A program made the position numbers and the translations under genes. A DNA stretch of 64,000 nucleotides, from NCBI GenBank assembly GCA_963677485.1, contig OY781964.1, positions 2,560,001 through 2,624,000 on the forward strand, written 5' to 3'. This DNA is from Armatimonadota bacterium (GTDB taxonomy: Bacteria > Armatimonadota > HRBIN16). How positions within the stretch are numbered: position 1 is the stretch's first letter; each line of letters opens with the position of its first letter. The notes below the pieces were generated by a model. It made no database searches, was not told the origin of the DNA, and saw nothing but the letters and a program-made list of their open reading frames with translations. Positions 12,137 to 16,692 of this stretch are shown here, in pieces.

Positions 12137-13249
12137 CTACTTCTCCCACACGATCTTCACTGGATGCAGTTCGGTACACCAAAAAGCCCAGTTCAAGCCC
12201 GGATTCGCACTATACGCATATCCCAGATAGATGGGGCGTTTGGTGTCGATCTGCCCCTCCGGGTCGGCACTGATGCCGCAGTTCGATATCCATGTGCGCA
12301 GATTATGAGTTACATGGACGGGTTCACTCCAGGTGATCCCATCACGTGAGGTTCTCACAGCGATAAAGCTGTGATCAGTGAACCGGCTGGCGGTACTCAC
12401 GGCAATGAAGCATTTATATGCAGGAACGTACTTCACATCAGCACTATCTTCGGCATCTAGACGATCCCACGCGGCTCCAAAAAGCTTCAGCTTTGCGGGC
12501 CAGTTATCATCATCGGCAGGCGCGGTTGCCACCATGGTGCGGTCAATGCTCGCACTCTTGCCTCCTTGCCCTGGCCAGCTGCCAAGAGTGTAATAGATGA
12601 ACAGCCTCTTGCCCACGCGGACAAAGCTTGGTTCACCCGCACCCCACCACTTCACCGGGCTGTGAAATGAAACCAGCGGAACGGGGCTGGTGCCTCCCCA
12701 GCCTTTACCGTTCCATTTTGCGTATGGACCTGTGGGGCTGGTGCTGCGGGCCACGAACACTTCATTACGATTGCTCGGCATATTATCAACACCGGTCGTG
12801 CCCAGGTAGTAATATGATCCCAGCTTGATCACGCCAGGGTCGCAGGTGCTGTATTTTTCGCGTGAACTGGGGACGGGCCTGAGAACTACTGTCTCTGGGC
12901 CGGTCGGCTTGCCGTCGGCACTCAGCTTTTGGTGCCGGATCCAGTCCCACTGCCAGTACATTCCATCGACCACACCTTCGTATGGGTATGCCTCACCGAA
13001 CAGTTTTGCGCCGGCGAAATCAGTAGCCGCATTGTCATCTACCGAGCCGCCAGGGGCCGAAAAGAAGGCATCGATGCTGCCGTCTGGATTCATCAGCATG
13101 GTGGGACCATATCGGTATAGCCCTCCAAAAGTCACTTTTGAGGGGTCGAATATGGTCCAGCCCGGCCCCGCTTCTATGGTCAGACGACGGATGGGTGTAG
13201 GATGAGTGCTCTTGGCGACATCGCCCATGGCATGACCGCTTAGCGATAA
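12137..13249 (-). pseudogene. Main body of a secreted five-bladed beta-propeller hydrolase (GH43/GH32-like clan), interrupted by the IS110 element
   Basis: Motifs CDPGVIK, VARSTSPTGPY, WGAGEPS and RTSRDGITWS. Its first 19 codons lie at 15520-15464. Confidence 0.8.
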
Positions 13250-13350
13250 CCAGGCACCCGCCCGTAGGGGAACAACGACACAAAGACCGTCCCAAGGGGC
13301 GGGCACGTGAAGGATCACGTGCCTTTGCCCTGGGTTTACTGCACTTCATC

Positions 13351-13701
13351 TTAGAAGTTGCTTGGTTCTAAGGAGTTACGCGTTAGCGTATAGCGTGGTG
13401 TGCCGTTGAAAGTGCGCACACCAATAGTGACTGGCCAAAACACATCCCATCCAATAGAAGTGTATTCCTTCGGTGCCCACTCAGATACACAGTAAGTGGT
13501 GTCACCTGCAAGTATTTTGTAGTCCACCACTTCCCGTTGATCGTTGCCAACATATCTGCGATTGCGTCCAACAACTACCCCTGCAAGCATAAGGCCTTGA
13601 TGGACTGAACTCGTCGTGTCTAGGTTTTCCACGGATGTTTCACTACTAAACTCGTGGGTTGTCACGTGTGCAATCGTCTCGTTGGTTTTCGGGTCTATCA
13701 T
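13351..13701 (-). CDS. Small OB-fold/SSB-like protein (116 aa) coupled to the IS110 recombinase
   Basis: ATG at 13701 overlaps the recombinase TGA (ATGA). Five-strand OB-like pattern in the C-terminal half; ends in Phe. Fold assignment is by eye. Confidence 0.65.
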   Translation of the reverse strand: MIDPKTNETIAHVTTHEFSSETSVENLDTTSSVHQGLMLAGVVVGRNRRYVGNDQREVVDYKILAGDTTYCVSEWAPKEYTSIGWDVFWPVTIGVRTFNGTPRYTLTRNSLEPSNF

Positions 13702-15119
13702 TTCTTTACGTGGGGCTGAAGGATTACCTTCACGTGCATCAGGCATTTTTCGCCAACTCCTCTAATTTGTGATAGTGCTCCTGAATCGTAGGCTTTACCT
13801 AGTTCATCGGCAGTGCTGTAGTGTGATAGTAGCTTCGCGTAACGGCCATATTCATCCACAGTGAGAACTTTACCGTCATAGCGAGTAGGCTCGAAGTAAG
13901 TGTATAGTTCGTATTTGAACATCTCACCTCGGTTGCTGACGTGATACGATGCCTCGATCATACGTCGGGCTACCGCACCACATGCCTTTTTGAAACCTCC
14001 TTTCTTCTGTCGTTTCCACATATTGTATCCCCAGTTACCCAGCGCTTCCTTGGGTCTGGCAATGAGGATTTGTGCGGCATGAGTGAGTGCTGAGTGTAAC
14101 TTTTGATTCCCTCCACGCCTGGCCTGTGAGGTGACTTTACCTGCGCTGACCTTCAGGCTGGGGTCACAGCCGGCATATGCGGCTAGAGCCTTCGCATTTG
14201 GAAATCGCGTGGGGGTGATTACTTCCGTCATCCAGTAGAGGGTACTGAGTGGGCCGAAACCGGGGATGGAGAGCAGCAGCTCTTTCAATCGGGTTCCATT
14301 GACAATTTCACCCGTTCCCAGAGTAAACTCTGTTGTGTCAGCGGTTTTCTGGGCGATCTGTTCATACTTCTTGACTTTACTAATCGCATCGTCGTATTCT
14401 TTATACAGTTCATAGAAAACGGGTCTAACGGTTGGTGGGATGCCATCAGGGCACACACCGTTAGATCGAACAGGCCTATCCTCAAGCAAGTCTTGAATGA
14501 TGGCTCGGCCACGTGATGACACTACGGGGTCTTCTGCGCCTATGGTGTGCCCGTATCGCAGCAGAAAATTATTGATGCGGTTTGAGGCTCGAAGTGCCAT
14601 TCTTTTGGCGTCTTCGCGCATGTTTAGAAATATACGCAGCGTTTGTATGGGCATGGGTGCCAGGTATGATACCGGCCACATGCCAGTGATGGCATGGTAT
14701 GCCAACAGCCGAGAGTCCAGTACATCCGTTTTACGTCTGGACGGGCTAGCGAGTAACGGATTGACCACCGATGGGATACCACCAAATGCCCTGATGATGG
14801 GCAGGTGATATGTGCCGGTGCTCTCTATTGTGTATGCCAGACCGTGACTGTCAAGGGTATCTATGGCATCTTGATCGCCATATTTGAGTATGGTTTCTAT
14901 ACACCAATCTCGTGCTTGACAGAGTTGGTTCCATGAGGTAGTAAACTGCTGTTCGTGGCGTTTTACCCCATTTTCATTCCTGACATTGACACAAACTTGA
15001 ATGAAGCGCGAATGACAGTCAATACCCACACCAAATGCCTTAAGGCTATATGCTTCTACCGCATCCTCTTGTTGAGAGGGGTCGGTGAACGAATCTCCTA
15101 TTCGTGGTATATCCGACAT
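13698..15119 (-). CDS. IS110-family DEDD recombinase/transposase with a C-terminal HhH/alphaCTD-like extension
   Basis: GID (D34), IESTG (E99), KTDVLD (D132/D135). Transposase_20 region LLSIPGFGP...AYAGCDPSLKVSAGK...GGNQKL with the catalytic Ser retained. Confidence 0.93.
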   Translation of the reverse strand: MSDIPRIGDSFTDPSQQEDAVEAYSLKAFGVGIDCHSRFIQVCVNVRNENGVKRHEQQFTTSWNQLCQARDWCIETILKYGDQDAIDTLDSHGLAYTIESTGTYHLPIIRAFGGIPSVVNPLLASPSRRKTDVLDSRLLAYHAITGMWPVSYLAPMPIQTLRIFLNMREDAKRMALRASNRINNFLLRYGHTIGAEDPVVSSRGRAIIQDLLEDRPVRSNGVCPDGIPPTVRPVFYELYKEYDDAISKVKKYEQIAQKTADTTEFTLGTGEIVNGTRLKELLLSIPGFGPLSTLYWMTEVITPTRFPNAKALAAYAGCDPSLKVSAGKVTSQARRGGNQKLHSALTHAAQILIARPKEALGNWGYNMWKRQKKGGFKKACGAVARRMIEASYHVSNRGEMFKYELYTYFEPTRYDGKVLTVDEYGRYAKLLSHYSTADELGKAYDSGALSQIRGVGEKCLMHVKVILQPHVKK

Positions 15120-15192
15120 GTTGTTATCGTCGCCCCCTTATGCGCAGCCTGGTTAACAGTAGTCACGCTACTATTGAATATACGGCGCTGTG
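15060..15192 (-). ncRNA. Candidate bridge/seek-type RNA in the structured leader of the recombinase
   Basis: Downstream of a consensus promoter. Stems AAUAGUAG/CUACUGUU, GUCGG/CCGAC and ACGAAU/AUUCGU; 8-nt complements of both element ends. Confidence 0.4.
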
Positions 15193-15197
15193 TAATA

Positions 15198-15226
15198 ATT
15201 ATGGTGTATATATTTCTACGTGTCAA
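15198..15226 (-). promoter_or_regulatory. Sigma70-type promoter for the IS110 transcript
   Basis: TTGACA-N17-CATAAT on the minus strand, with an A/T tract upstream. Confidence 0.8.
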
Positions 15227-15279
15227 GGCTTTTTTACTAAATTTCAAGATATTTTTTCAAAATTTTTCGAAATTGGGTT

Positions 15280-15309
15280 TTGACACACTTTTTAGTCGAT
15301 AGTGACAAT
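15280..15309 (+). promoter_or_regulatory. Possible divergent outward-facing promoter in the IS110 left end
   Basis: TTGACA-N18-GACAAT. Confidence 0.45.
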
Positions 15310-15461
15310 AATTCGGTCGTATGGACCAAAATCGGCTTAGGTTTCTTTGAGGTATATTGCTGTGCTGTTCGGCGAAATGAGGTGTTTTTGCGGGCGGATT
15401 TGCCTAAACGGGTACGTACATTAATGTATAGTACGTACACTGTATATAGTCTTTATAGGAG

Positions 15462-15520
15462 AAGCTGCACACCAACGCAGTGATGAGAAACTGTATGAGT
15501 TTGCGAATACCTGTCGTCAT
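15462..15520 (-). pseudogene. 5' fragment (signal-peptide codons) of the interrupted beta-propeller hydrolase gene
   Basis: RBS AGAAGGGA (15538-15531), ATG at 15520, MTTGIRKLIQFLITALVCS then TT; joins in frame to 13247. Confidence 0.85.
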
Positions 15521-15708
15521 TTTGAGCTGATCCCTTCTGAATGCGAGACGGGGCATACTATTGATTCTCAGTATACAGCCTTAGCAGCACCGCGTGTCCC
15601 TTGCATGAGCAGTTGGTTATGTGCAAGAATCGGGTGATGCGGAACTGATGCGACTATAAATACAGCAATATCCAGCATACCGGAACTGATGAAATAGAGG
15701 ACAACTTA

Positions 15709-16692
15709 ATGAGTGCAATGACTTCCCGCGAACGAGTGCAATGTGTTTTGAACGGCGGAAAGCCTGACCGCGTACCGTTCAACTTCTGGATGGACCGCGA
15801 CATCATGGCCCGACTTGATGCGAAGTGGGGGGCGGACTTCCGGCTGACCCACTACGGTGTGGATGTGATCGAAGCCTTCGCAACGCTTCCTTTCTGGTGG
15901 ACAGTACCGCCCAAAATGGTGCATGACGCCATCACCTCATGGCAGGTGGAGCCCATCATCGATGACATTCGCAAAGCGCTGGATCTGCCCTTACCCACAC
16001 AACAGCACATCGATGCGGTGACCCTGGACATCGAGGCGAAGCGTGCAGCCAACCCGGATAAGGCGATCTTTGCCCTCACATTAGCTCCGCTGGATATCAT
16101 CTTCCCTCTACGCCTGATGGAAGGCGCGATGATCGATATGATGGATTACCCCGATGAGTTACATGAGGTGCTCAGGCGGTACCGGAGCATCATGATCCCT
16201 GCCATGGAGAAGGTCTGCGCATCCGATATCGATGTGTTGTATCTGGCGGGTGATATTTGCAGCGTGAACGGGCCGATGATCTCACCGAAGCTTCTGCGTG
16301 AGTTCCATTTCGAGTATATGAAGGAACTGGTTGATATCGCCCATGCGGCCGGGAAGAAGGTTCTCTATCACACCGATGGCCGGCAGAACCATCTGTGGCC
16401 GATGTTCATGGAATACGGCTTTAACGGCGTGAACCCCGTGGAGGCGCGTTACCACGACTACAACGACTTCGTGGCCGATACGCGGGGAAAGCTCACGTTG
16501 TATGGCGGTCTAGATAACTGCAACGTCATCCCCAACGGCACCGTGGACGAAGTGCGTGCTCAGGTGCGCAGCGTATTCGACATCGTGGGTAAGAACGGCG
16601 GGCTGATCTTCAGCTCACACGACATCCCCTCCTGCGTTCCGATGGAGAACCTCGACGCCATGGTGGATGAGATCAAGAGCTGCACTTATTAG
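15709..16692 (+). CDS. Uroporphyrinogen decarboxylase/MtaA-CmuA methyltransferase superfamily protein
   Basis: MTSRERV...PDRVP, GDICSVNGPMISP, YHTDG, GGLD, GGLIFSSHDI and PMENL motifs. Confidence 0.88.
   Translation: MSAMTSRERVQCVLNGGKPDRVPFNFWMDRDIMARLDAKWGADFRLTHYGVDVIEAFATLPFWWTVPPKMVHDAITSWQVEPIIDDIRKALDLPLPTQQHIDAVTLDIEAKRAANPDKAIFALTLAPLDIIFPLRLMEGAMIDMMDYPDELHEVLRRYRSIMIPAMEKVCASDIDVLYLAGDICSVNGPMISPKLLREFHFEYMKELVDIAHAAGKKVLYHTDGRQNHLWPMFMEYGFNGVNPVEARYHDYNDFVADTRGKLTLYGGLDNCNVIPNGTVDEVRAQVRSVFDIVGKNGGLIFSSHDIPSCVPMENLDAMVDEIKSCTY

Follow-up and report, generated by a model that had tools for sequence, protein, structure and literature searches.

Can an IS110-family insertion sequence be built around two proteins instead of one? 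The cited portions of Durrant et al. (PMC11208160) and of a 2026 preprint (bioRxiv 10.64898/2026.08.14.744561) present IS110 bridge recombinases as one protein combined with one RNA, and as the smallest programmable DNA-insertion systems. Our full-text literature searches turned up no conserved second protein in IS110 elements; genes of this kind may still be listed in the supplementary tables of PMC11208160 and of the 2026 preprint. The question arises from a locus in a 64,000-nt stretch of an Armatimonadota bacterium genome (GCA_963677485.1, contig OY781964.1, positions 2,560,001 to 2,624,000), which we call the window and whose numbering is used throughout. On its minus strand, an IS110-family recombinase gene is followed by a small gene, here called the partner gene. 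The original prediction for this locus described the product as similar to single-stranded DNA-binding proteins (SSBs) and proposed a two-protein system for RNA-guided recombination. We favor, with a probability of about 0.55, the reading that the partner is the conserved second gene of a distinct IS110 lineage with a helix-hairpin-helix (HhH)-like recombinase extension and an apparent guide encoded in the left end (LE), and that its product acts as an accessory nucleic-acid-binding subunit.

The partner gene and its association with the recombinase

We collected 96 loci using the recombinase alignment alone: species-representative genomes supplied 16, and metagenomes the 80 best of 134 confirmed loci. 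Each locus was scanned in all six frames with a hidden Markov model (HMM) of the small partner family. A partner open reading frame (ORF) was present in 87 of the 96 loci, always on the recombinase strand and either overlapping the recombinase or directly after it. The loci include duplicates and near-duplicates (L014 = L070 = L071, L022 = L023, L095 = L096, L003 = L010 and others), so the independent elements number fewer than 87. Seven of the nine misses can be ascribed to too little downstream DNA: L016, L017, L019, L020 and L097 have less than 60 nt, L086 has 185 nt, and L059 has 274 nt, its 99%-identical twin L058 carrying the ORF further on. The other two are L018, where only a 37-aa recombinase fragment is present, and L082, which has 908 nt of downstream DNA but a recombinase match that ends at profile position 431, before the C-terminal domain.

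The recombinases of these loci are 37-60% identical to that of the window, a range that extends to 76% when the closest homologue (P0004) is included. The named records, classified by the titles of metagenome-assembled genomes (MAGs), come from Latescibacterota, Phycisphaerales/Phycisphaerae, Verrucomicrobiota, Limisphaerales, Armatimonadetes, Sumerlaeota and Clostridia. The original prediction had asked whether close recombinase homologues lack the gene; homologues 37-76% identical, in at least seven named groups, keep it in the same place. The partner frame is open before the recombinase stop codon in 80/87 loci; 65/87 have an in-frame start at this stop or upstream of it, and 20/87 have a start with a 4-nt NTGA overlap. 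Across 84 loci, the pairwise identities of the two proteins correlate with a Pearson r of 0.90, a value that 0 of 999 Mantel permutations reached, and we read this as co-inheritance, which is expected for linked genes in any case. On average, the recombinases are 46% identical and the partners 31%.

We also searched complete sets of genomes. The small-family HMM matches the 5.2-Mb window genome once, at E 1.5e-30, with the next match at E 0.41. PF02371 has 18 matches in the same genome, and the 17 IS110-family genes other than the one studied here lack an OB partner. About a dozen of the 18 are apparently identical 442-aa frames of a different, multi-copy IS110-family element (for example G000 C1:721222-722547, 1066600-1067925 and 1660814-1662139). 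A two-sequence profile run against 401 genomes of the window's phylum recovered the window and one true relative, G031, whose contig is that of L010 and has the recombinase directly upstream. A weak match in G121 (L004, E 0.00115) covers 23 residues and has no recombinase near it, and we rejected it as chance. Five genomes that we reached by way of their recombinase loci gave 8 small-family matches, each of them beside a recombinase or its fragments, and 2 of 401 genomes from the phylum of a MAG titled Phycisphaerales contain a match. Few genomes thus carry the partner family, and where it occurs it nearly always accompanies this recombinase.

The partner also behaves as a protein family in its own right. 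An exhaustive HMMER search of 1.84 billion cluster representatives returned 43 proteins at E ≤ 0.001, of which 39 are 69-169 aa long. An alignment of 39 small-family rows, which we call A2, shows invariant G36, G41, R46 and Y61, and nearly invariant G84 and C-terminal F116; R48, R49 and W75 are conserved as well. The nearest relative, P0002 (129 aa), is 53% identical over its full length, with nearly all identities in the last 80 residues and a variable N-terminal part. P0002 lies on a contig of 2241 bases, and the longest contig listed for P0004 has the same length, which suggests that both are encoded on one contig. The other four of the 43 are long proteins (P0138, P0140, P0143 and P0164; 499 to 4299 aa) in which the matches are confined to 4-14 short, repeated stretches per protein. 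Such stretches may be copies of a beta-rich unit related to the partner, or may result from composition.

Searches of named families placed the partner in none of them. Pfam gave no match for the window partner at E ≤ 1 and scattered single matches only among the 39 members, PHROGs gave one family, matched at E 0.0028 by 2/39 members, and the small-family profile matched no PDB sequence at E ≤ 10. The ratio of nonsynonymous to synonymous substitution rates (dN/dS) in the domain is 0.09-0.35 in 14 of 15 related-locus pairs, and the fifteenth pair is identical. A chance ORF is contradicted by these ratios, by a confident fold prediction and by the 43 cluster representatives with conserved residues and a terminal Phe. 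Judged by its conservation, the partner ORF is a genuine gene under selection and belongs to a previously unnamed family of small OB-fold (oligonucleotide/oligosaccharide-binding fold) proteins.

The start codon of the partner gene probably differs from the one first proposed. The recombinase stop codon (TGA, 13700-13698) and an ATG at 13701 do share the sequence ATGA, giving the 116-aa form that was originally described at this overlap. The same frame remains open upstream to an ATG at 13746, giving 131 aa and a 49-nt overlap with the recombinase. An AGAGGAG sequence, a GGAG-type ribosome site, lies about 10 nt upstream of the ATG at 13746; by sequence reading, no such site precedes the ATG at 13701. 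Gene calls in the protein collection take the long form for the window (P0001, 131 aa) and for its closest homologue (P0002). Because the upstream ATG has a ribosome site and the gene calls take the long form, the ATGA start is possible but probably not the main one, and the 131-aa start is likelier. From the overlap of the frames we infer that the recombinase and partner are co-transcribed and translationally coupled.

Boundaries of the element and its candidate left-end RNA

The element is about 2.2 kb long and leaves a right end (RE) of 97 nt after the partner stop codon (Table 1). The claim that the small ORF lies wholly within the element ends is borne out, as the two CT cores enclose both genes. 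The ends are defined by comparison with two genomes of the same genus, G093 (L106:1141-1842) and G141 (L112:639-1345), which hold remnants consisting of the RE tip, the first 14-17 recombinase codons and the LE. Between the RE tip and the recombinase codons, both remnants have about 320 nt of unrelated or diverged sequence, and they could be internally deleted copies or non-autonomous derivatives. Read in element orientation, the window, L106 and L112 are alike exactly from TCTCCTATAAAGAC (TCTCC) and different before it. In a metagenome contig (run X8, record 18) the match extends as far as 15462 and the sequence beyond it is unlike the window, which supplies a fourth flank.

At the opposite boundary, the RE tip, ...GTTGTTCCCCT(T/A)CGGGCGG..GCCT, is common to the window, the two remnants and a solo fragment (L110), with about 40 nt shared, and all of them diverge after GCCT. 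The solo fragment (L110:1501-1538; G000:C1:2795715-2795752, minus strand) is an RE terminal motif of about 38-45 nt that stands alone, without an adjoining element, and is probably all that remains of a further decayed copy. We assigned CT as the core dinucleotide because CT at both ends fits all three copies. A 38-42-nt motif at 13248-13289 had been considered as a repeated target site; this was discarded when the remnant alignment showed it to be the terminal part of the RE. Further inside the RE, 28 nt past the partner stop, is a perfect 8-bp hairpin (GGCACGTG, 6-nt loop, CACGTGCC). The coding strand lacks a T-run there, and the hairpin may therefore have a structural part in the RE instead of acting as a terminator.

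Related copies and remnants with the same ends occupy other sites in the two same-genus genomes, which indicates that the element has been mobile. Two loci from a single MAG, L008 and L012, also share 97.8% identity over 2231 nt between differing flanks, and the homology ends inside both loci. The shared block contains a third ORF in addition to the recombinase and the small ORF. This third ORF follows the OB gene, with a start that overlaps the OB stop, in 4/96 loci representing three distinct elements (L012:3021-3341, L008:4420-4740 and L095/L096:4552-4914). It matches HTH_17, an excisionase-type helix-turn-helix, at E 2e-7.

Table 1. Features of the element in the window, in whole-window coordinates
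Feature	Positions	Strand	Description
Left CT core dinucleotide	15460..15461	(-)	Flank from 15463; T at 15462 common to all copies
Left end (LE)	15120..15459	(-)	340 nt, non-coding; candidate bridge-RNA region and recombinase leader
Sigma-70-like promoter TTGACA-17-CATAAT	15198..15226	(-)	11/12 consensus matches; TTGACA kept in three copies
Leader hairpin, 5-bp stem	15158..15172	(-)	AGUAG/CUACU in window, AGCGG/CCGCU in both remnants (two compensatory pair changes)
Guide-like RNA segment UAACCAGGC	15147..15155	(-)	Complementary to last 2 nt of RE, CT core and 5 nt of right flank
Recombinase ORF	13698..15119	(-)	473 aa, IS110-family; RuvC-like DEDD domain and Tnp domain with serine
Recombinase C-terminal extension	13701..13922	(-)	About residues 400-473; HhH-like or RNA polymerase alpha-CTD-like
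Partner gene	13351..13746	(-)	131 aa (116 aa from alternative start 13701); predicted disordered N-terminus, OB barrel and short tail ending in Phe
OB-fold core	13378..13593	(-)	Residues 37-108 of the 116-aa form; five predicted strands, pLDDT ~97
Right end (RE)	13254..13350	(-)	97 nt; 8-bp hairpin 13302-13323 and conserved terminal motif 13254-13289
Right CT core dinucleotide	13252..13253	(-)	CT at both junctions in three copies

The LE contains a segment whose sequence covaries with the right flank. This guide-like segment lies just 3' of the leader hairpin, 30-32 nt before the recombinase ATG, and falls in one aligned column in three copies. The window RNA UAACCAGGC pairs with the DNA GCCTGGTTA, including 5 flank bases. 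The corresponding RNA of the G141 remnant, GUAAUAGGC, pairs with GCCTATTAC, again with 5 flank bases, and that of the G093 remnant, AUCAGGC, pairs with GCCTGAT and 3 flank bases. The resulting flank-match sum of 13 was reached by 0 of 20,000 random flank sets, whose maximum was 11. On these pairings, the segment behaves as a right-target guide in a bridge RNA would, and the choice of target appears to be RNA-guided, with a complete LE-encoded bridge RNA as a candidate.

Other features of a bridge RNA were also sought. One candidate for right-donor pairing, with CCGCCCG in the window and CCCGAA in the remnants, is suggestive and unproven. Rfam gave no match over 12800-16200 at E ≤ 1, and the fold of the whole LE is no better than that of shuffled sequences (z -1.35). 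A terminator-like hairpin at 15312-15330 on the minus strand falls within a 51-nt stretch of the LE that is missing from both remnants. A separate small RNA, transcribed from the outer LE, could have its 3' end there.

We compared the element with characterized members of the IS110 group. The cited portions of Durrant et al. describe the pattern of this group as a long LE and a short RE, no long terminal inverted repeats, and a core dinucleotide at the junctions (PMC11208160). The recombinase matches PF02371 (Transposase_20) at E 1.2e-16 (61.3 bits against a cut-off of 21.3). PF01548 (DEDD_Tnp_IS110) matches residues 31-189 at E 6.2e-6, with 26.5 bits just under the 29-bit cut-off, and it appears in the precomputed annotation of all but one (P0038) of the 120 relatives listed. 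Matches to solved structures include the IS621 recombinase (8wt6, E 1.7e-10) and ISCro4 (9t56, E 1.4e-7). An alignment of 20 relatives shows E99, D132, D135 and S325 to be invariant and D34 nearly so. E99, D132/D135 and S325 align with matching stretches of IS621, S325 being the serine in an ESGSS stretch. We take E99, D132, D135 and D34 to be the catalytic DEDD residues and S325 the catalytic serine, following the naming used in IS621 work.

The likeness to IS621 and the IS110 group thus covers the same Pfam domains, sequence similarity, the conserved acidic and serine residues, an LE of 340 nt that exceeds the RE of 97 nt, and an LE RNA segment complementary to the core and right flank. CT stands at both ends here, and the IS621 core is reportedly also CT. 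By its sequence features, the window element can be placed in the IS110 group: it has a PF01548-type domain, a PF02371 domain with the serine, no long terminal inverted repeats, CT cores at both junctions with an LE longer than the RE, and copies at different sites. Two properties set it apart. Its recombinase is about 145 aa longer than that of IS621 and carries a C-terminal HhH-like domain. The window lineage also keeps a second protein gene between the recombinase and the RE, where the papers cited describe a system of one protein and RNA.

Predicted folds of the partner and the recombinase extension

We modeled the partner with AlphaFold2 using A2. The mean predicted local distance difference test (pLDDT) score was 84, with values of about 97 for residues 37-108 and 60-68 for the first 35 residues, which are probably disordered. 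The model contains strands at residues 37-51, 56-65, 68-75, 86-98 and 101-108 in the numbering of the 116-aa form. A five-strand OB pattern had been read from the sequence alone, and the five segments then named coincide with the modeled strands in this high-confidence core.

Structural searches agree on the fold. The top ten Foldseek matches in the PDB are all nucleic-acid-binding OB domains, as are most of the rows listed, and they include SSB domains at the top, Teb1, PriB, Rim1, RPA and domain I of RuvA (1cuk, 7oa5). VIA-align, which is independent of Foldseek and was run against 48,161 chains, ranked the SSBs 3tqy (Z 9.0) and 7r4w (Z 8.8) and the PriB structure 2ccz (Z 8.4) best; SSB and PriB matches span Z 8.1-9.0 over 70-83 aligned residues. 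With this method, models that have no true match often reach a Z of 7-8, and scores at the level seen here support a shared fold, not a function. Nearly all of the 50 VIA-align rows listed are OB-fold proteins. In the BFVD viral library, two matches fell below E 0.001, among them Orf1 of Propionibacterium phage B5 (E 5.7e-4), and the weaker ones include a DUF3127 protein (E 1.6e-3), phage SSBs and LEF-3. The ESM Atlas returned unnamed clusters at 0.92-0.93, with named small ssDNA-binding families only at 0.82-0.86, below the lead level of the tool. The OB fold that was foreseen for the partner is thus confidently predicted, and its nearest folds are nucleic-acid-binding domains of the SSB/PriB type.

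The predicted kinship with SSBs and inovirus gene V proteins holds for the predicted fold and fails for sequence. The best structural matches of the partner are to SSB and PriB, with which it has in common one OB domain and, behind it, a flexible tail that ends in Phe. It differs from them in lying outside the sequence family, in its shorter core (about 72 residues) and in a tail that is much shorter and, in the window, non-acidic. Small phage ssDNA-binding proteins (Ff gene V type PF02303/PF17426/PF17878; DUF3127) resemble the partner in their size of about 90-130 aa and single small barrel, with the Atlas and BFVD rows as weak hints. They differ in setting, as the partner sits in an insertion sequence and not in a phage replication module, and among Pfam families PF02303 matches 0/39 members and PF17426 1/39, at E 0.077. 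By these comparisons, the partner shares only a fold with the SSB and gene V families and is a sequence-family member of neither.

The terminal Phe noted in the original prediction is present in the window and recurs as the last residue in 77 of 85 complete ORFs of the family. The commonest endings are GEEF, GSDF, GEAF and DEEF, and the Phe mostly follows acidic residues. The SSB of the host (157 aa; L134:1492-1965, G000:C1:1022903-1023376) ends in ...DYDPFADES. Its DPF motif is internal, unlike that of model bacteria, where it stands at the very C-terminus of SSB.

The recombinase carries a domain beyond the region shared with IS621. The IS621 alignment stops at residue 401 of 473, and the roughly 75 residues that follow are conserved in the lineage with the pattern L..R....L...G..T......AY..G.L....G.G.K.L. 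Among 28 members, the extension matches RNA_pol_A_CTD (the C-terminal domain, or CTD, of the RNA polymerase alpha subunit) in 9 (best E 2.2e-5) and HHH_2 and HHH_5 in 2 each; the extension of the window recombinase itself has no Pfam match. Its AlphaFold2 model consists of three helices with a mean pLDDT of 79. Foldseek found no row below E 1 for this model, and the weak rows include alpha-CTD, PolX and Hef HhH domains. Together, these data give moderate support to the view that the extension is HhH-like.

Proposed role and competing explanations

We propose that the partner serves the recombination machinery as an accessory nucleic-acid-binding subunit. Its gene would be co-transcribed with that of the recombinase and has been inherited jointly with it throughout the lineage. 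The protein may bind single-stranded nucleic acid through a basic GR.RR loop and the conserved Tyr and Trp. During synapsis it would hold either the guide RNA or the DNA strands that are displaced as this RNA pairs with target and donor. The tail with its terminal Phe may dock on another protein molecule, which could be the recombinase or a host protein. The two-protein RNA-guided system first proposed for this locus keeps a conserved pair of genes and an LE segment that covaries with the right flank in three copies, and the mechanism is what we infer from them. Co-folding of the recombinase and partner scored 0.23 against a mark of 0.32; this gives no verdict and we used it neither way.

Several observations weigh against this proposal. 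The Foldseek E-values in the PDB are weak, beginning at 0.009 with none below 0.001, and the VIA-align scores are subject to the limit given above; the OB fold is well supported by the models, and the SSB-like subclass is a lead only. A sequence-level relation to SSB is missing, as PF00436 matches 0/39 members at E ≤ 0.1 and hhalign gave a probability of 0.2% between the partner profile and the host SSB. The window tail ends in ...SNF, which is non-acidic and unlike the tail of the host SSB. On the RNA side, the left-target guide and the donor guides were sought in the LE and gave only short, non-covarying matches, so that one of the expected guides was found. The element is single-copy in the window genome, and an empty target site was absent from the two same-genus genomes, where the neighboring GH43-like gene is decayed or absent. 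One of the two matches in the phylum of the MAG titled Phycisphaerales is an orphan (L133), a truncated partner with no recombinase in the 1400 nt upstream.

A bolder form of the proposal makes the OB partner an obligate subunit of a two-protein bridge recombinase, capturing displaced strands or the guide RNA and forming, with the HhH-like domain of the recombinase, a RuvA-like module beside the RuvC-like domain. The RuvC-like DEDD domain and the HhH-like domain lie on the recombinase and the OB domain on the partner, three parts distributed over two proteins. RuvA (7x5a) ranks 49th against the partner OB model at Z 7.0, well below SSB and PriB, and has no sequence similarity to it; on the models, the likeness to RuvA is a resemblance of parts only. 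We regard the obligate form as possible though doubtful. If it were true, these elements would have their own means of handling Holliday junctions and perhaps of controlling direction, that is, excision versus insertion. The OB protein might instead be a regulator that limits recombinase translation or transposition by binding either the RNA (leader or guide) or the ends of the element. Small phage ssDNA-binding proteins autoregulate translation in this manner. The arrangement of the LE would suit such a role: the guide-like segment and conserved hairpin lie 30-55 nt upstream of the recombinase ATG and downstream of the promoter, so one RNA may be both guide and mRNA leader. The weak gene-V-like leads point the same way, but the Atlas scores fall short of the tool's threshold for a lead, neither Pfam nor the PDB profile search found gene V family membership, and a pure inhibitor is easily lost, yet the partner is kept in 87 of the 96 loci. 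These points make a purely regulatory protein unlikely.

A third possibility is that the partner imitates SSB, its OB body sitting on ssDNA at the recombination site while an acidic tail ending in Phe recruits host repair or replication proteins. SSBs bear an acidic tail that ends in Phe, the closest folds of the partner are SSBs, and most family tails have the acidic residues as well. However, the family ending GEEF is without the proline of the SSB tip, the occurrence of the elements in many phyla would call for a target shared by all hosts, and the SNF tail set against the ...DYDPFADES end of the host SSB excludes mimicry in this host, which leaves the idea distinctly unlikely for the family. 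If the partner were instead a passenger, it would confer a benefit unrelated to recombination, such as anti-defense or addiction, and be joined to the recombinase only by physical linkage. Its failure to match a family or function in Pfam and PHROGs fits such a gene, and the cited part of the 2026 preprint reports that IS110 elements carry cargo, including expanded elements with variable adaptive genes (bioRxiv 10.64898/2026.08.14.744561). The variable adaptive cargo described there contrasts with a partner of fixed position and orientation whose frame overlaps the recombinase in most loci. This partner is also kept across recombinases 37-60% identical in MAGs of many groups and co-diverges with them, and it is missing beside the 17 other IS110-family genes of the window genome; a mere passenger is therefore improbable. 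We find it scarcely credible that the ORF encodes no protein and is a chance frame or an overprint on a right-end non-coding RNA of the IS1111 type. The bridge RNA of the IS1111 group is encoded downstream of the recombinase, according to the cited portion of PMC11208160, but here the guide-like segment lies in the LE and not at the partner ORF, and the dN/dS range of 0.09-0.35, the confident fold and the 43 representatives with a conserved terminal Phe all argue for a protein.

The lineage is widespread and has kept a second protein and an extra DNA-binding-type domain throughout its diversification, which suggests that the minimal one-protein design is not the sole workable one. The partner may supply strand capture, RNA stabilization, directionality or a host link that single-protein enzymes are missing. 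This could matter for the engineering of IS110-type recombinases, and it adds an unnamed family of small OB-fold proteins.

The element adjoins a GH43-like ORF (12137-13318, minus strand). Because 13254-13350 is the RE of the element, the start of this ORF is probably the ATG at 13228 and not the GTG at 13318. Its orthologue is present as fragments in G093 and is missing at the corresponding site in G141. The element thus ends 24 nt upstream of the GH43-like ATG and may affect the expression of this gene.

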